From assembly GCA_963782525.1 (NCBI GenBank), contig CAWAKC010000007.1, positions 256,001 to 320,000 on the forward strand: a stretch of DNA of 64,000 nucleotides, written 5' to 3'. The DNA is from Candidatus Bathyarchaeota archaeon. GTDB lineage: Archaea > Thermoproteota > Bathyarchaeia > Bathyarchaeales > Bathycorpusculaceae. The notes below the pieces were generated by a model. That model was not told the origin of the DNA. It ran no database searches and saw only the letters and a list, made by a program, of their open reading frames with translations. Position numbers and translations under genes: made by a program. Numbering within the stretch: the first letter of the stretch is position 1; each line of letters begins with the position of its first letter. This document shows, one piece after another, positions 46,184-59,970 of this stretch.

Positions 46184-46741
46184 TTGGCAGCGAAAATATA
46201 CACTTTGGACTTTTGCTATGAGAACTCGCTAGTTAAAATCGTGGCGAATCGTAACTGTCCAGAAATTAAGCTTGCCGGGTTAACTGTCGGTCCCTTCGAC
46301 GAAGGCAACGAATATGAAGTGTATTTTTGGGTAGCTAAAGAAATAGCGTCTGCAGGCATGGTTCATTTTCGGGAAGGCGAAATGCTTGACGCTACTAGAC
46401 TGTTTCAGTTACAATGGAAGGAAGGAGTGCAGATTCCAGGGCAAATATCCGATTTACCTGGCGATTTCTACCCTAAATTGCGTCGGTTCATCGGTGACCT
46501 AAAAGACCAAACCCAAAAACAACCTGACGCAGTAAAATTCCAGGAATACGACCGGGCGCGGCAATTAGCGCGTGACATCGTGAATTCTCGGCTAAAAAAA
46601 ATTGTTGCTTTATCTGCGGCTCCAGCCCAAAGTGACCAGGTTCTAAAAAAACTTACAAGCGAAGAAAGACTAGTCTACGAGCAACTAGTAAAAATCATCT
46701 CCGAGTGGAAAACAAGAATTTTAGAGAGTGGAGAGAAGTAG
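46184..46741 (+). CDS. GINS complex subunit (Gins23-type)
   Basis: N-terminal B domain (GPF.EG...EV.FWVA), LP.DFY...R, I...RL.KI, LT.EE. Immediately upstream of mcm. Confidence 0.8.
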   Translation: MAAKIYTLDFCYENSLVKIVANRNCPEIKLAGLTVGPFDEGNEYEVYFWVAKEIASAGMVHFREGEMLDATRLFQLQWKEGVQIPGQISDLPGDFYPKLRRFIGDLKDQTQKQPDAVKFQEYDRARQLARDIVNSRLKKIVALSAAPAQSDQVLKKLTSEERLVYEQLVKIISEWKTRILESGEK

Positions 46742-46742
46742 G

Positions 46743-48776
46743 ATGGCTAAGCTTGAAACCATCGATCCTCAGCAGCGGTTCCAAGAGTTCTTCAAGAAAG
46801 AAAAGTACCGACAGAGAATCGCGCAATTAGCCATTTCGGGCAAGGGTTCATTAAGCATCGATTTTGAAGAGCTCTACGGCTTTGATCAGGCACTCGCTGA
46901 GCTGTTACTCAACAAGCCCGAAGAATACCTGCAACATGCTGGTAAAGGAGCTTACGAGCAGCTTCGCATTGAAGATGCTGAATATGCTGAGAAAATAGAG
47001 AAAGTCATAGTTAGAATCGTAAAGCTTCTGGGCAAAGAAGTTCTTCGAAAGCTCGGCTCAAGACAGATGAGCAAGCTTGTCATGATTGAAGGCATCGTGG
47101 TTCGGGCTACTCCTGTGCGACCTATGGTTCAGCTTGGAGCCTTTAAATGCAAACGCTGCGGCACCATGAACCTAGTTGAGCAAACTGGGCAGTTCTTGAA
47201 GGCCCCTTCGGTTTGCGTTGCGCCCGATTGCGGTCGAGATGGACCATTTGAGTTTAGTCAAGAAGAATCCACTTTCATTGATTCACAGGACCTGAGGTTG
47301 CAGGAAAAACCAGAGGATTTACCTCCAGGACAACTTCCTCGTGTGTTAGCTGTGAAGCTTGTAGGCGACGAAATAGTCGATGTGGCACGACCAGGAGACC
47401 ACGTATCCATAGTTGGCACTGTGCGTGCTTTTGCACCGTCACTAATGGGCATGGGGAAACTGCGCACATTCATCCTCCAACTAGACGCCAACTCCATAGA
47501 AGTCTTGGGCAAAGAACCAGAAACCTCTCCGCCCACACCTGAAGAAGAAGCAAAAATGATCGAACTATCCAAAGACCCCTTAGTGCACAGAAAAATCATG
47601 ACTTCCATCGCACCCTCAATCTTCGGCTTAGAACACATCAAAGAAGCAATAATGTACCTACTGTTCGGTGGAGTTTCAAAGAGCCTCCCTGACGTAAACG
47701 TGAGGGGCGAAATGAACGCATTGCTCATCGGTGACCCAGGCACAGCCAAATCACAGTTGCTCCAGTACGTCGCCAGAATAGCGCCAAGAGGCTTGTACAC
47801 ATCGGGCAGAGGCACAACCGCGGCAGGCTTAACCGCAGCCGTAGTTCGAGAGAAGGGCGGAAGCATGAGTCTAGAAGCAGGAGCATTGGTCCTCGCCGAC
47901 AAAGGAATCGCATGCATCGACGAAATGGATAAAATGCGACCTGAAGACCGCGTTGCCATCCACGAAGCCATGGAACAGCACACGGTTTCAGTAGCAAAAG
48001 GCGGCATCGTGGCCACACTAAACGCAAGGACCGCGGTCCTAGCAGCGGCGAACCCATCGTTGGGCAGGTATGAACCTAACCGAACTGTTGCAGAAAACAT
48101 TTCCCTGCCTGTAACCATCCTTTCACGTTTTGACTTGATCTTCGTTCTGCGAGATGTGCCAAACAAAGAATCCGACAACAAAATGTCAAGACACATCTTG
48201 GAGATACACCGCAGAGGAGTAAGCCCTGTAGAAGCCCAAGTCGACGCTGAACTCCTGCGCAAATACGTCAGTTTTGCCAAGAGCATCAAGCCAGAACTCA
48301 GCATGGACGCGTTAAACCGCCTAAGCGACTTCTACTTAGCAATGCGTTCAGCAAGCGAAACCGAAGGCTCCCCCGTAGCAATAACTGCTCGTCAGCTGGA
48401 ATCTCTAGTTCGTGTTGCCGAAGCCCGAGCGCGTGTTGCGCTGCGCAAGGAAGTCACTGCAGCCGATGCAGATGCAGCCATAGCAATTATGAAGCGGTCA
48501 CTAGAAGAAGTTGGAATCGACCTCTCATCCTACAAAGTTGACATCGACTTGATTATGACTGGCAGATCCAAGAGCATCCGAGACAGATTATCCACGGTGC
48601 TGTCAACACTTATGGATATGGAGAAGATAACAGGCATCGTTGAGAAAGATGCGTTGGTTAACGAGTTGGAAACCAAGCATAAGATTTCGAGAGGCGAAAT
48701 CGAACGCATGCTTAGCCAACTGCTACGGGAAGGAACAATTTATGAACCACGCGAAGGATGCTTGAAGAAGACGTAG
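46743..48776 (+). CDS. mcm: MCM replicative helicase
   Basis: Zn motif CKRC...C..C, GDPGTAKSQ, IDEMDKM, HEAMEQ, LSRFD and a C-terminal winged helix. No intein. Confidence 0.97.
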   Translation: MAKLETIDPQQRFQEFFKKEKYRQRIAQLAISGKGSLSIDFEELYGFDQALAELLLNKPEEYLQHAGKGAYEQLRIEDAEYAEKIEKVIVRIVKLLGKEVLRKLGSRQMSKLVMIEGIVVRATPVRPMVQLGAFKCKRCGTMNLVEQTGQFLKAPSVCVAPDCGRDGPFEFSQEESTFIDSQDLRLQEKPEDLPPGQLPRVLAVKLVGDEIVDVARPGDHVSIVGTVRAFAPSLMGMGKLRTFILQLDANSIEVLGKEPETSPPTPEEEAKMIELSKDPLVHRKIMTSIAPSIFGLEHIKEAIMYLLFGGVSKSLPDVNVRGEMNALLIGDPGTAKSQLLQYVARIAPRGLYTSGRGTTAAGLTAAVVREKGGSMSLEAGALVLADKGIACIDEMDKMRPEDRVAIHEAMEQHTVSVAKGGIVATLNARTAVLAAANPSLGRYEPNRTVAENISLPVTILSRFDLIFVLRDVPNKESDNKMSRHILEIHRRGVSPVEAQVDAELLRKYVSFAKSIKPELSMDALNRLSDFYLAMRSASETEGSPVAITARQLESLVRVAEARARVALRKEVTAADADAAIAIMKRSLEEVGIDLSSYKVDIDLIMTGRSKSIRDRLSTVLSTLMDMEKITGIVEKDALVNELETKHKISRGEIERMLSQLLREGTIYEPREGCLKKT

Positions 48777-48871: not shown

Positions 48872-49642
48872 TTAGGAAATATACGTCGTCTTCTTGTCGT
48901 CTTGTTTTCGGGTTTCTTCAGCTTGTACAGCACGTTTTTCTTCGATTTGCTGCAGGCGGGTAACCATTGTTTCGGCTTTTGCGATTTCTTCGTTTAAGCC
49001 AGCAAGGTCCAAGTCAAAGTTGAAAGTTGACTTCAGTACTTCTAGAACGCTTTTTGCTGCGAGAGGATCTGGGAGATAGCCACGTGTTTCGCCAAGTAAG
49101 CAGAGTGCGTCGATTTTTTTGAATTTCGCTAAGCCAAGGATTAAGCCTGCTGTTCCTACGATGGGGCTCCCTGAAGTGCTAAGTGTTGCACCAGCTTCCA
49201 AAGCTTTGTGCAGAACATCTTGGGATGTTGCTGCTATGAAGACTTTGGGTTTCTCTTTGGGTTCCATGCGGTAGCCACCGATGGTTGCAATCGTTTTCAC
49301 ATGGTGTTTTTCAGAAAAATCCAGCATGCGGTCGGCGATTTCGTATTGTCCTTCGATGGTTTGGCTTTGGCTGTCGCCTGTGAATAAGATGATGTCGTTT
49401 CCCTTGGGGTTTTGGTAGAAGTAGAATGCTCCTCTTAACAAGCGCACATTACCTTTTTTGTTAACTAACACGAAGTATGGAAAATGTGGCGAGTATAGGT
49501 AAGCGATTTTTTTGGCTTTCAACTGTTTAATCAAATAGCGCAGAGCGATTTTTCCCACTAGTCCTAAGCCAGGTAGACCTTCGATAAGGATTGGGTTGTT
49601 GGGTTTGATTTCACTAAATTCTTTGATGTACGTTTCCTTCAT
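48872..49642 (-). CDS. PAC2 family proteasome assembly chaperone
   Basis: LIEGLPGLGLVGKI, GDSQ, TIGGY, IVG.AGL, CLLGET.GY.PDP.AA. Confidence 0.92.
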   Translation of the reverse strand: MKETYIKEFSEIKPNNPILIEGLPGLGLVGKIALRYLIKQLKAKKIAYLYSPHFPYFVLVNKKGNVRLLRGAFYFYQNPKGNDIILFTGDSQSQTIEGQYEIADRMLDFSEKHHVKTIATIGGYRMEPKEKPKVFIAATSQDVLHKALEAGATLSTSGSPIVGTAGLILGLAKFKKIDALCLLGETRGYLPDPLAAKSVLEVLKSTFNFDLDLAGLNEEIAKAETMVTRLQQIEEKRAVQAEETRKQDDKKTTYIS

Positions 49643-49809
49643 TGTGCTTCTGCGCCCCTTTTCATAGCCATTCGGTACTTTAGGTATTTATCATCTGGGG
49701 AAAATTTAGGCGGATGAGGAATTCTCACTGGTCCACCACAGTAGGGACAACTAGTCTTGTTTAGGGTGTATTTTTCACATTTCACGCATTTGCGTAGTTG
49801 CCAAACCAA
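49639..49809 (-). CDS. nop10: H/ACA RNP protein Nop10 (below ORF-track cutoff)
   Basis: TTG start. MVWQLRKCVKCEKYTLNKTSCPYCGGPVRIPHPPKFSPDDKYLKYR, 56 aa, with its stop overlapping the PAC2 ATG. Confidence 0.93.
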   Translation of the reverse strand: MVWQLRKCVKCEKYTLNKTSCPYCGGPVRIPHPPKFSPDDKYLKYRMAMKRGAEAQ

Positions 49810-49866
49810 TCAGCAGTCCCTTCTAGAAAAGCTAAGCTGCCGGCCAATTAGCTCAAGCTCAGCCAT
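49810..49866 (-). other. 18-aa mini-ORF (MAELELIGRQLSFSRRDC) at the position normally held by aIF2-alpha
   Basis: GAGGA RBS-like element then ATG at 49866. TGA at 49812-49810 abuts the nop10 start. Confidence 0.5.
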
Positions 49867-49879
49867 TTTGCTGTTCCTC

Positions 49880-50077
49880 TTACTCAAGAACTGCTTGGAC
49901 GTCACCGTTAATCTTTGCTCTTCCACCGCTGGGTTCAGCTAACAATTCACCGCAGACGTTGCAGACGATTTTGTTAACTGCATTGCTGAAGATGAGTTGT
50001 TCGTTGCCGCATTTCTGGCATTTAACCCGTAGGAAGACGCTTCGCGGTTTCGGGATAAGTTTATTCCATTCAGACAT
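49880..50077 (-). CDS. rps27e: 30S ribosomal protein S27e
   Basis: IPKPRS.FLRVKC.KCGNEQ.IF.....C.VCG..L..P.GG.A.I. Confidence 0.96.
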   Translation of the reverse strand: MSEWNKLIPKPRSVFLRVKCQKCGNEQLIFSNAVNKIVCNVCGELLAEPSGGRAKINGDVQAVLE

Positions 50078-50098
50078 AATTTTCAAACTCCGTTAATT

Positions 50099-50374
50099 TT
50101 ATACTAGTGCTAGTTTTCGCAGGCGTATTCCATCTTTGTGGTACATGTAGTTGCATTTTTTGCATTTCATGCGCATAGTTTGCTTTTTTGTGGTTTTGGC
50201 GAATTCATGTTGAAGTGGATATTTTTGTCCGCCGTAACCTTCTTTTTCACGTTCATGGTGTCTTTCGCCTCTAGCAAGCGCTCTGCGTTTGCCCGCTTTA
50301 TAGATGGATACAGTATGAACGGTGTGAGCTTTACATTTTGGACAGTACGTATTGATTTCTTTAGGAACGTTCAC
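50099..50374 (-). CDS. rpl44e: 50S ribosomal protein L44e
   Basis: PK...TYCPKC..HT.H.V, GYGGQKYP, AKTTKK....KC..C. GTG start at 50374. Confidence 0.96.
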   Translation of the reverse strand: MNVPKEINTYCPKCKAHTVHTVSIYKAGKRRALARGERHHEREKEGYGGQKYPLQHEFAKTTKKQTMRMKCKKCNYMYHKDGIRLRKLALV

Positions 50375-50822
50375 GTTGACTACCAGCTCGCATAAAAGAA
50401 ACATACACCCTCTTATACTTTATGACTTTTAAAGCAAAAACCAGCAGTTTTCACCTCTGAAGTTTTGTATTTTTCAATAGTAGTTGTAACAGAAAACCCC
50501 GAACTAAACATCGTTTAGGAAACAGCCTAGAAATTGGTTTTTGGCGTAAGCGTCGGGTTTGAATTATAGGCGGGTCATGCTGCAAGTAGCATAAATTACA
50601 CGAGTGACATGTAGTGAGAGGTAAAAGTTGAGAAGCTTAAACTAGGCTGATCTTACCTCTTTGAGAAGAAAAAGGATAGAGAATTGGTTATGCACTCAGA
50701 AATTTAATTTCTATTGCCAAACGCTTGTTTCTGTGTTTGGTTGGGAACAATTTTATTAACTAAAAGCGTTATCAATAGCTATATAAATTTACAATACATG
50801 ATACAGCGAGGAAGAGGGTAAC

Positions 50823-51578
50823 ATGTTCAAGCTTAAAGTGTCTGACGCTAAACTCTTAAGGGATATGGCTACTGCCATCTCAATTCTTGTTGATGAAGCA
50901 ACCTTCAAAATTGACTCTGAAGGCTTAAAACTTCGCGCCATGGACCCATCACGCGTAGCCATGATAGATTTTGAATGGCCCAAAACGCTGTTCCAAGAAT
51001 TTGTGACCACTGAACCCACAAAAATCTGCTTAAACATCAGTGAATTACTCAAACTTCTCAAACGCGCAGGAAAAGAAGAAGCAGTTGAACTGTCCTTGGA
51101 CGACAAAACTGGCCGTTTACTTGTTACGATAACTGGCAAGTACAGCAGAAACTTTACGATGCCTACACTTGAAGCTTCCGAAGAAGAAGTTCCAACACCA
51201 AAAATCAGCTTCAACGTCAAAGCCAAAACCACTACTCAGGGCTTAAGCCAAGCAATCGAGGACGCCCAACTCGTCAGCGACCACGTAAAAATCGAAGCTG
51301 AACCAGAAAAGTTGACCCTGAGCGCTTCAGGCGACTTGATGGGAGCAACAATCACACTCCAAAAGGGTAACGACGCACTCCTCGACTTAGAAGTCAAAGA
51401 AAACGCAAAAGCAACCTTCAGCTTAAGCTACCTCTCAGAAATCATCAAAGCCGCGTCTGCAACCTCAGACATTGCAACATTGGAATTCTCATCTGACATG
51501 CCTGTGCGAATCGATTTCCAGCAGACAAAAGAAGGAAAGTTAACTTTCTTCTTGGCACCAAGAATCGAAACAGAGTAA
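50823..51578 (+). CDS. pcn: DNA polymerase sliding clamp PCNA
   Basis: LVDEATF...GL.LRAMDPSRVAM, FSLSYL, F..DMP, F.LAPR. Confidence 0.97.
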   Translation: MFKLKVSDAKLLRDMATAISILVDEATFKIDSEGLKLRAMDPSRVAMIDFEWPKTLFQEFVTTEPTKICLNISELLKLLKRAGKEEAVELSLDDKTGRLLVTITGKYSRNFTMPTLEASEEEVPTPKISFNVKAKTTTQGLSQAIEDAQLVSDHVKIEAEPEKLTLSASGDLMGATITLQKGNDALLDLEVKENAKATFSLSYLSEIIKAASATSDIATLEFSSDMPVRIDFQQTKEGKLTFFLAPRIETE

Positions 51579-51585
51579 GACAAAA

Positions 51586-52611
51586 GTGCAGATGGAAACG
51601 GCTTTATCTTCCGAAGATTTTGCCAAATACCCATTTTTAAAACAAGCATCAAAACAGATTGAAGGGCTCCAGTTTACCATCGGAGCTTTATCTTCCGAGA
51701 AACCCATTTTTGACCGAGCCCAAAAACGCGTCGAAAAAGCAATCTTAGAAGTAAATACAGGAGAAGCAATCAGAGATGGACGGGCTGAAATTTCATCTTT
51801 TGCTGCTGCGCTTATTCTGGTTATTGCAACCAAAAATTCATGGATTAAAAAACGGTACACGTTGGCAGTTGCAAAAACTGCGCACGCACAAATGCTCAGC
51901 GAGGGTAAAGGAAAAATTTTTGCCATTGCCCAAGACTTTGAGTGGGATATTGCAGAAGGAGAGTTTGGCAAAGATTTTCGTTTAGGGTTTAATTTCTACC
52001 TCAAGAATGCCGCCCACATGCATGGTTCCGAGTGGAAGCTGGTTAACCAAATCATGGATAAGGGCATGGTTTACTTAAACAAAGACAAAGTCGTGCGACT
52101 GCTCCAAGAAGAAATAAAACGCCGAGTCGAGAAAAGGATGGACGTTTCTGAAATCAAGAACCTGCCCTCAGAAATTATCGCCATCGCCGAGGAACTGATG
52201 AAGTTGGCTCAAGCTATTATGGGGCAGGAAATTGAGGAGATGCCCAAAGTTGTAGTCCAAGCCGCTTTTCCACCATGCATTAACGCGCTCTATGCGGATG
52301 CAGCACAAGCACATCACCTTAGCCACATCGGACGCTTTACGCTGACATCTTTTATGGTTAACATCGGCATGACACCTGAAGGACTCAATGACATGTTCAA
52401 AACCTTCTCTGATTACAACGAACGTTTAACTCGCTACCAGATCGAGCACATTGCGGGTGAACGCGGGTCAGGAACAAAGTACACTTGTCCCCAATGCTCG
52501 GTTTTGCAAACTCATAGCGTATGCAAGAACCGTGATGAGTTATGCCGCCGTATCTATCATCCGCTTCAATATTACAAGAGAAAGCAGAAAACCATGACTC
52601 AGGGGCAATGA
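51586..52611 (+). CDS. priL: DNA primase large subunit
   Basis: AKYPF, WKLVN....G.VYL, FPPCI, LSH..RF, T.YQIEHIAG, Y..P.C......C.....C. Confidence 0.93.
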   Translation: MQMETALSSEDFAKYPFLKQASKQIEGLQFTIGALSSEKPIFDRAQKRVEKAILEVNTGEAIRDGRAEISSFAAALILVIATKNSWIKKRYTLAVAKTAHAQMLSEGKGKIFAIAQDFEWDIAEGEFGKDFRLGFNFYLKNAAHMHGSEWKLVNQIMDKGMVYLNKDKVVRLLQEEIKRRVEKRMDVSEIKNLPSEIIAIAEELMKLAQAIMGQEIEEMPKVVVQAAFPPCINALYADAAQAHHLSHIGRFTLTSFMVNIGMTPEGLNDMFKTFSDYNERLTRYQIEHIAGERGSGTKYTCPQCSVLQTHSVCKNRDELCRRIYHPLQYYKRKQKTMTQGQ

Positions 52612-58722: not shown

Positions 58723-59970
58723 ATGAGTAACACTAGTAAAGCCTTGCCTAAGCAGCCAGAAGTCAACATTGGCACAATCGGACATGTAGACCACGGAAAA
58801 ACAACGTTGGTTCAATCGTTAACTGGAACTTGGGCATCACGCCACAGTGAAGAACTCAAACGGGGCATCACCATAAAACTCGGCTACGCCGACATGCCCA
58901 TCTACAAATGCCCCAAATGTGAACCGCCAAAAAACTTCACGATTAACCCTTATTGTGAAAACTGCAATTCTGAAGCAGAATTTGTGCGCGCCATTAGCTT
59001 TGTCGATGCACCCGGTCATGAAGCTTTGATGGCAACTATGCTCTCAGGCGCAGCCATCATGGACGGCGCAATCTTAGTCATTGCAGCGGATGAGCCGTGT
59101 CCTCAACCGCAGACACGCGAGCACCTTGCAGCCGCAGAAGTCAGCGGCATAAAAAACCTAATCATCGTTCAGAACAAAATCGACATCGTCGACGAGAAGA
59201 GGGCGATTGAAAGCTACAAAGAAATCAAAGCTTTCGTCAAGGGAACAGTAGCAGAAAATGCTCCCATCATACCAATCTCAGCGCAACGCGGCATAAACAT
59301 TGACGTACTCTTAACCGCCATTCAAACTATCATCCCTACACCCAAGAGGGATGAAACCAAGCCCCCAATGATGTTCATCATACGCTCCTTCGACATCAAC
59401 AAGCCCGGAACAACCCTCGAAGGCTTGGAAGGCGGCATCATCGGAGGAACCATCGCACAAGGCAAATTTGCTGTCGGCGAAGAAATCGAAATCCGACCAG
59501 GCGTCATGGCTGAGCGAGAAGGCAAAACAGTCTACGACCCCCTAATCAGCGAAATAATCAGCCTCCAAGCAGGCAACGAAAACGTTAAGGAAGCCACATG
59601 CGGCGGCTTAGTCGGGGTAGGAACATGCCTTGATCCTTCATATTCAAAAGCAGACGGGTTAACAGGCAGCATCGCAGGAAAAATTGGTCAACTACCACCA
59701 ACCCTAACTGAACTCACATTGGAAACGCATGTCTTGGAACGGGTGGTTGGAACTAAGGAGCTTCAGAAAGTCGAGAAAATCAACCCAGACGAAGCCCTAT
59801 TGCTCCACGTTGGCTCCGCCGTGAACGTTGGCAAAGTCATCTCCATCAAACAAAACGTGATTAAAGTAAAGTTGACAAGGCCGATTTGTGCGTTGCCAGG
59901 TTCAAGAGTTGCCATCAGTAGAAAAATTACTGCAAGGTGGAGATTAATCGGTTACGGACTCGTAAAATAG
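58723..59970 (+). CDS. eif2g: translation initiation factor aIF2 gamma subunit
   Basis: QPEVNIG..GHVDHGKTT, HSEELKRGITIKLGY, DAPGHE, QNKID, RSFDINKPG, RWRLIGYG. Confidence 0.97.
   Translation: MSNTSKALPKQPEVNIGTIGHVDHGKTTLVQSLTGTWASRHSEELKRGITIKLGYADMPIYKCPKCEPPKNFTINPYCENCNSEAEFVRAISFVDAPGHEALMATMLSGAAIMDGAILVIAADEPCPQPQTREHLAAAEVSGIKNLIIVQNKIDIVDEKRAIESYKEIKAFVKGTVAENAPIIPISAQRGINIDVLLTAIQTIIPTPKRDETKPPMMFIIRSFDINKPGTTLEGLEGGIIGGTIAQGKFAVGEEIEIRPGVMAEREGKTVYDPLISEIISLQAGNENVKEATCGGLVGVGTCLDPSYSKADGLTGSIAGKIGQLPPTLTELTLETHVLERVVGTKELQKVEKINPDEALLLHVGSAVNVGKVISIKQNVIKVKLTRPICALPGSRVAISRKITARWRLIGYGLVK

Follow-up and report, generated by a model that had tools for sequence, protein, structure and literature searches.

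The operon considered here runs on the minus strand of the window, by which the whole analysed stretch of 64,000 nucleotides is meant. It comprises rpl44e, rps27e, nop10 and a PAC2-family gene, and between the second and the third of these lies a very short ORF. As the initial annotation had assumed, the gene of aIF2-alpha is normally found between the genes of S27e and Nop10; this is true in the order of the host, and aIF2-alpha is adjacent to Nop10 in 14 of 15 outgroup genomes. The only non-adjacent case among the 15 order-level genomes with both genes is G040, where the genes of Nop10 and aIF2-alpha are found on opposite strands of contig C1, some 11 kb from each other (73662-73814; 85106-85894), an arrangement that may be a separate relocation. 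The flanks of the operon are replication genes, MCM, PCNA and the primase large subunit (46728-48776, 50823-51578 and 51586-52611 of the window). The four genes of the operon clear their Pfam thresholds by a wide margin. The features of the locus are the following.

50099..50404, minus strand: rpl44e, first gene of the cluster (PF00935, 91.3 bits)
49880..50086, minus strand: rps27e, whose TAA stop ends at 49880 (PF01667, 71.6 bits)
49875..49879, minus strand: GAGGA, Shine-Dalgarno-like, 8 nt upstream of the mini-ORF ATG (from the sequence)
49810..49866, minus strand: mini-ORF MAELELIGRQLSFSRRDC, ATG (49866-49864), 17 sense codons and TGA (49812-49810) (from the sequence; homology to aIF2-alpha via intermediates)
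49852..49866, minus strand: first five codons, relic of the aIF2-alpha 5' end (ancestral ATG GCT GAG CGT AAG, MAERK), constrained (alignment to the full-length gene of G003)
49810..49830, minus strand: last six codons and stop, relic of the aIF2-alpha 3' end (ancestral TTT AGA AGG GAA AAA TAG, FRREK and stop) (alignment to the full-length gene)
49830..49864, minus strand: possible hairpin with a 9-bp outer and a 3-bp inner stem, statistically unsupported (centroid fold)
49639..49809, minus strand: nop10, whose TTG immediately follows the stop of the mini-ORF (PF04135, 83.5 bits, profile positions 1-50)
48872..49642, minus strand: PAC2-family gene, its ATG overlapping the nop10 stop (ATGA, 4 nt) (PF09754, 152 bits)

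From the rps27e stop (49880) to the nop10 TTG (49809), the spacer 49879..49810 measures exactly 70 nt. The TGA of the mini-ORF abuts this TTG with 0 nt between them, and both ORFs are co-directional. The length of the spacer, the GAGGA, the ATG, the ORF of 18 codons and the abutting TGA had all been annotated before, and every coordinate was confirmed, as was the intact aIF2-gamma gene 9 kb from the operon (58723..59970; NF003077, 650 bits vs a cut-off of 315). No aIF2-alpha domain was detected in the spacer 49879..49810, and the mini-ORF peptide gave no match in Pfam. The 3' end of the 16S rRNA reads ...GGAUCACCUCCU, and its CCUC is complementary to the GAGG that stands 9 nt before the ATG of the mini-ORF. 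At the GAGGA site, relatives have GAGATGA or GGGATGA; GAGAUGA is complementary to the anti-Shine-Dalgarno sequence at 6 of 7 positions, and the AGAAGG before nop10 matches it, by manual pairing, at only 5 of 6. Inside the 3' relic, AGAAGGGA lies 7 nt upstream of the nop10 TTG, with its AGG core 9 nt upstream, and 49810..49830 is presumed to be the translation-initiation region of nop10.

Graded remnants and a second copy of aIF2-alpha

The genes of S27e and Nop10 were located first in 24 relatives from the genus and 16 order-level genomes; the survey was later extended to the full set of 120 species-level genomes in the genus. A spacer of about 790-815 nt, with a full-length aIF2-alpha gene, occurs in 54 of the 120. 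Among these full-length operon copies 52 are open, and five of them use non-ATG starts. Two further cases are early stages of decay that precede deletion: the full-length copy of G087 has 7 stops (C1:666998-667780, 41% identity) and that of G089 has 1-2 stops (C13:102801-103583). The other 66 genomes carry an aIF2-alpha remnant in a spacer of 59-300 nt. About 25 length or junction variants could be distinguished, of 59, 62-63, 70-75, 80-81, 120-122, 129, 135 and 138-143 nt, among others, and at greater lengths of 153-156, 174-181, 206, 221-232, 250, 258 and 291-300 nt. The minimum is 59 nt (14 codons), and none of the 120 genomes has a shorter spacer. In the alignment with the full-length G003 gene, every remnant retains the leader of 15 nt, the ATG, the first codons (MAERKPEW...) and the last codons (...FRREK and the stop), and the interior is removed to a varying extent. 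A tblastn search with aIF2-alpha found no match in the 70 nt of the window, although the longer remnants do match; it is through intermediates of 72, 120, 143, 178 and 231 nt, aligned to the G003 gene, that the scar of the window is tied to aIF2-alpha. These alignments show the spacer to be a remnant of the aIF2-alpha gene of the operon, which internal deletions have shortened. The proposal that an in-frame deletion left a scar with both ends of the gene is supported by this graded series, in which both ends align to full-length copies in 66 of the 120 genomes, and it also fits the frame preservation and the sequence constraint described below.

It had also been suggested that the assembly collapsed at this place. 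A collapsed full gene, for which no supporting point was found, is hardly conceivable; misassembly is excluded because contigs of four runs, two of DNA and two of RNA libraries, run across the junction free of indels, and a spacer of 70-72 nt is present in 17 other genomes. One DNA contig (X1, possibly the source sample) spans 586 nt with 1 mismatch, and another, from a different study (X3), spans 777 nt. The RNA-library contigs, from two studies, cover S27e, scar and Nop10 over 353 nt (X2) and 308 nt (X10); they are compatible with co-transcription and no proof of a single transcript, as DNA may be present in libraries of this kind. In X10, loose ends correspond to the scar type of 120 nt that occurs in relatives.

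The remnant genomes do not form one clade (AU test, p = 0.000147, delta lnL 44.4). On a 35-row tree of the flanks the remnant state needs 3 changes, and G003, with two intact copies, is sister (95/96) to G004, G019 and G016; on a 130-row FastTree it needs 10 changes, at least 4 of which are forced by the starred branches, the resolution of these trees being limited by the roughly 480 columns of the locus's own flanking genes on which they were built. Taken together, the topology test and the trees show that the operon copy has been lost more than once, independently in several lineages. The same architecture of 34 codons and 120 nt appears at three separate places on the flank tree (G011-type, 7 genomes; G013-type, 5 genomes; and G016). 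The junction of the 120-nt remnants is apparently identical, with ...GCTTAYGCT directly followed by TTTAGAAGG (loci L007, L016, L006 and others). This recurrence could reflect a deletion hot spot (only 2 nt of microhomology are seen by eye), recombination between lineages, or tree error.

The fate of the protein itself had been left between relocation and loss. The host genome (12 contigs, 2.87 Mb, 95.8% complete) holds, in a profile search over the whole genome, a single match to PF07541, on contig C1. It belongs to an intact aIF2-alpha gene of 262 aa at about 329959-330747 of that contig (G000 C1), with an S1 domain (PF00575, 46.2 bits) and an EIF_2_alpha domain (PF07541, 94.9 bits). The protein is full length above the curated cut-off (NF003064, 269.5 bits vs 252, profile positions 3-259 of 262) and passes two NCBIfam equivalog cut-offs for aIF2-alpha. 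Because this one full-length copy passes equivalog cut-offs, the searches show aIF2-alpha to be relocated rather than lost, with the paralogue as the sole intact and putatively functional copy; the suggestion of relocation is borne out, and that of loss is refuted.

In a maximum-likelihood tree of 38 aIF2-alpha sequences, the 17 copies located elsewhere than in the operon form one clade (100/100), on a long stem of 0.29, inside the clade of the genus (100/100). Because these copies form one clade within that of the genus, the tree indicates a single duplication, which would have taken place within, or at the base of, this genus of Bathyarchaeia. Of the 120 genomes, 25 contain the operon copy alone, 27 contain both copies intact, and 2 combine a decayed full-length operon copy with the paralogue. 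The paralogue is present in 59 of the 66 remnant genomes; the seven without it (G011, G086, G090, G094, G021, G074 and G130) are 52-88% complete. Terminal branches of the elsewhere copy are long (0.11-0.27) where the operon copy is intact and short (0.004-0.06) where it is the sole copy, which fits relaxed constraint during redundancy. Several genomes with the operon copy only, e.g., G020, G099, G060, G041 and G062, nest among paralogue-bearing lineages, which suggests either that the paralogue was reciprocally lost in them or that their assemblies are incomplete. The elsewhere copy appears split or interrupted by stops in G120 (C6), G124 (C21), G108 (C38) and G129 (C30), all with a remnant operon copy, and these are either assembly errors or genomes without an intact aIF2-alpha. 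On contigs C8 and C9 of G092, two full-length copies of the elsewhere type were found (94% and 92% identity to the query), in a bin with 6% contamination.

As to the origin of the duplicate, no relics of S27e, L44e, Nop10 or PAC2 were found beside the 66 loci of the elsewhere type (among 80 loci), and the ORFs that adjoin the relocated gene (58, 127 and 234 aa) matched no Pfam family. The ORF of 127 aa (L001:1932-2315) has its GTG start 2 nt past the stop of the relocated aIF2-alpha and adjoins it in 46 of the 66 elsewhere-type loci; it may be a new coupled partner.

Reading frame and substitution rates of the scar

The frame was measured from the ancestral ATG to the AGAAGG anchor. It is kept in 55 of the 66 remnants, and 53 stay open as far as a stop that lies 0-2 nt from the start of nop10, 50 of these with the ancestral ATG. 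Under a relaxed criterion, an ATG-initiated ORF of at least 8 codons that ends no more than 2 nt from the nop10 start is present in 58 of 66. Remnants of 63-94 codons are also free of stops. Coarse single-linkage clustering gave 17 deletion classes, of which 15 contain an in-frame member and 13 are in frame in their majority (P = 3.4e-4 vs an expectation of one third, with the reservation that frame counts are phylogenetically non-independent and that remnants inherit openness from the former gene). The ancestral ATG has been lost in 6 of the 66 remnants, 5 of which have an in-frame ATG a few codons upstream; G049 is the only remnant without any ATG-initiated ORF. Eleven of the 66 are frame-shifted, and eight of these stop at the TAG inside TTTTAGAAGG, 12-13 nt upstream of nop10. 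A further one, G095, stops 38 nt upstream. The ORF extends 28 nt into nop10 in the frame-shifted G113 and G100, and also in G098, which is in frame but no longer has its stop. Either the upstream ORF is not indispensable in the out-of-frame remnants, or these are assembly errors.

The start of Nop10 is TTG in 58 of the 66 remnant genomes. A TTG or GTG start at, or overlapping, the upstream stop is found in 61 of the 66 genomes with a remnant and in 52 of the 54 with a full-length gene, and such abutment of a stop with a TTG or GTG start is a signature of termination-reinitiation. In many relatives (e.g., G001, G012, G023, G108 and G102) the GAGATGA located 3 nt past the rps27e stop itself holds an ATG that shares the frame of the scar ORF (MNSKMAERK...). 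The genome of the window lost this ATG by the 2-nt deletion that created GAGGA (49875-49879). In such relatives, the scar ORF may also be coupled to rps27e.

Substitution rates were compared with those at 4-fold sites of four flanking genes. For the 72-nt class, the 66 pairs among 12 genomes gave a pairwise divergence of 0.091 over the first five codons, 0.071 over the middle and 0.120 over the last six codons with the stop, vs 0.422 at 4-fold sites. The first six genomes gave 94/1062 differences in the scar vs 1040/2558 at 4-fold sites, and the scar was lower in 15 of 15 pairs. In the two 120-nt classes, divergence is 0.07-0.17 at the ends and 0.202 and 0.262 in the middle, with 0.258 and 0.367 at 4-fold sites. 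For the 3' relic, values of 0.07-0.12 stand against 0.26-0.42 at 4-fold sites, and the TTTAGAAGGGA motif, with at most one mismatch, occurs in 62 of 66 remnants and is kept in frame-shifted ones too. The 13 nt upstream of the ATG are unconserved in the class 120b (0.408 vs 0.367). The rates show that the ends of the scar are evidently constrained, evolving 3-5 times slower than 4-fold sites, and that the middle of the longer scars is nearly neutral. With its frame kept and its ends slow, the scar is not mere neutral debris. Constraint extends over the whole length of the 72-nt class, with the third codon position the slowest (0.037), and this is the least well explained fact of the locus.

Changes of codon state were non-synonymous and synonymous in proportions of 16:3 in the 72-nt class, where two of the three synonymous ones are stop-codon variants, and of 34:14 and 40:6 in the 120-nt classes. 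Because amino-acid changes dominate, these comparisons show that the peptide of the scar is itself not conserved.

Explanations for a retained stub

The 70-nt stub of a translation-factor gene that was duplicated and then lost persists in the ribosomal-protein operon of a soil archaeon, apparently because the start of the next gene still requires ribosomes to pass through it. In our estimation the scar is probably a relay ORF, kept to bring ribosomes to the weak TTG of nop10 by termination-reinitiation. Ribosomes would load at the retained aIF2-alpha start, at the ATG 8 nt from GAGGA, translate the 18 codons and stop at the TGA immediately before the TTG. They would then reinitiate at this TTG, and the chain would continue into PAC2 via the ATGA overlap. 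Selection would keep the 5' initiation region, the last 20 nt or so, which form the nop10 initiation region, and an open frame between the ends of a length divisible by three, the peptide being irrelevant, and gene decay would halt at a minimal translated relay ORF. Coupling of this kind across the scar, and with it a dependence of nop10 on upstream translation, is what we infer from the locus, because the frame is preserved and the start is a weak TTG or GTG.

Published experiments bear on the distances involved. In Haloferax volcanii, 40-60% of reinitiation is left with a gap of 13-14 nt and almost none with 22-23 nt, and in E. coli the last 15 nt of the upstream gene suffice for coupling (PMC10666635). 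The frame-shifted exceptions, 8 of 11 of which stop 12-13 nt upstream, fit this published gap tolerance. The relay ORF would cover the whole-length constraint of the 72-nt class only if two ribosome-binding footprints fill the ORF.

Other accounts share part of this evidence. Polarity is known in archaeal operons, together with a termination factor that acts on untranslated RNA. An open ORF could keep ribosome cover between rps27e and nop10 and so avert termination or RNA decay, with nop10 initiating on its own. This would explain the frame and the openness equally well, and tolerance of stops 12-13 nt upstream fits it. We consider it unlikely: 60-70 nt without translation make a short gap for polarity, but in no lineage has the remnant been removed entirely (minimum 59 nt), and ribosome cover does not need the exact stop-start abutment or the weak TTG or GTG start that are kept in 113 of 120 genomes. 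It is rather improbable that only the ends work, as untranslated cis-elements (the ribosome-binding region of nop10 on one side and, on the other, a 3' element of rps27e or the retained aIF2-alpha start region), with translation of the ORF absent or irrelevant and the frame a matter of inheritance and chance. Conserved ends around a near-neutral middle, a 3' motif that is kept in frame-shifted remnants, and the loss of the ancestral ATG in 6 of 66 remnants speak for such elements; the frame of 55 of 66 genomes and of 13 of 17 coarse classes (P = 3.4e-4), the stop-free remnants of 63-94 codons and the upstream in-frame ATG that backs 5 of the 6 ATG losses speak against them, and the first five codons are conserved with no evident role outside translation.

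A structured RNA within the mRNA of the operon, with a role in processing, stability or regulation, would account for what the other readings explain least, namely the full-length constraint of the 72-nt class with its most conserved third codon positions (0.037). The fold noted in the initial annotation is possible: 9 bp pair between spacer positions 16-24 and 42-50, the stem appears in the centroid structure of all five sequences folded, and two one-sided changes leave wobble pairs in place. The stability of the fold does not exceed that of shuffled sequence: the z-scores are -0.14 and 0.04 in the window and 0.03, -0.03 and -1.0 in three relatives. None of the 14 stem pairs showed compensatory change, and 3 had unpaired cells. 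A search of both strands of 49300-50600 against Rfam gave no credible match, the best E-values being 1.7 and 7.2, far below the gathering scores. The 3' arm is missing from the scars of 59-63 nt, so that the stem is class-specific. An RNA element, which had been put forward as an alternative, is thus unsupported by folding energy or covariation and seems quite improbable. A functional micropeptide, finally, would draw on the open ORF with its Shine-Dalgarno-like motif and on termini, MAE(R)K... and ...FRR(D/E)x, that recur across classes. It is very improbable, given the excess of non-synonymous over synonymous changes in all three classes (16:3, 34:14 and 40:6), codon positions without a coding-type pattern, a length that varies from 14 to 94 codons, a C-terminal motif that is conserved as nucleotides even out of frame, and the absence of a Pfam match.

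Two further candidates were rejected by eye. In the case of a C/D-box sRNA, the scar of the window lacks the GAGATGA and CTGA motifs that relatives have, and Rfam gave no support. An internal promoter in TTTTAGAAGG would lie about 16 nt from the TTG, too close for the TATA box of a leaderless nop10 mRNA.

Known systems and meaning

Termination-reinitiation is a known system (PMC6728339, of 2019; Huber et al. 2023, PMC10666635). Like the pairs described in these papers, the scar and nop10 are co-directional ORFs with the stop beside the start and a Shine-Dalgarno-like motif inside the upstream ORF. Also shared are a steep dependence on distance, with 13-14 nt partly tolerated and more than 20 nt not, and the sufficiency of a short 3' part of the upstream ORF. 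Unlike the coupled pairs reported there, the upstream partner is here the stub of a decayed gene, and the case rests on parallel evolution in 66 genomes. The coupling as such is already known; what would be new is that the stub of a decayed gene has been kept, in several lineages, to serve it as a minimal relay. No precedent for this was found among the top 10-15 of 53-67 literature matches, which leaves its absence unproven.

The retained stub also invites comparison with other short ORFs and with gene decay in general. Short upstream relay cistrons drive downstream translation in synthetic bicistronic designs and as natural leader cistrons. The scar resembles them in being a short, putatively translated ORF that stops at the start of its target and carries the ribosome-binding sequence of that target. 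It differs in having arisen as a pseudogene remnant, and no regulatory sensing is implied. As in the ordinary decay of bacterial and archaeal pseudogenes, a redundant copy was lost by internal deletions after duplication; unlike it, the decay is biased in frame, halts at about 59 nt and leaves ends that evolve 3-5 times slower than 4-fold sites. By analogy of design, the nearest counterpart of this presumed natural scar is the engineered in-frame scar of knockout collections. In the Keio collection, the start codon and the last few codons are reportedly joined in frame, so that a short scar ORF preserves the expression of the downstream operon. The start and the last codons of the removed gene are likewise retained here and joined in frame, but this state was reached by natural deletions and selection, repeatedly, and at lengths of 14 to 94 codons.

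On balance, translational coupling may well act as an evolutionary ratchet. A redundant gene in a tightly coupled archaeal operon could not be deleted cleanly and would be trimmed in parallel, across many lineages, to a minimal relay ORF of 14-18 codons, made of its own start region and its last six codons or so, and the 66 deletion variants would form a natural mutagenesis series that defines the cis requirements of termination-reinitiation in a class of archaea without cultured members. If this is true, the locus would provide a natural and replicated demonstration that coupling constrains the loss of genes from operons, and it would explain tiny unannotated ORFs between conserved genes. The roughly 25 natural deletion variants would map the parts of an upstream cistron that archaeal reinitiation needs, and they are valuable since such experiments are impossible in uncultured Bathyarchaeia. 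The hidden paralogy of aIF2-alpha and its reciprocal loss in the genus would matter wherever this gene is used as a single-copy marker or as an anchor of gene order.
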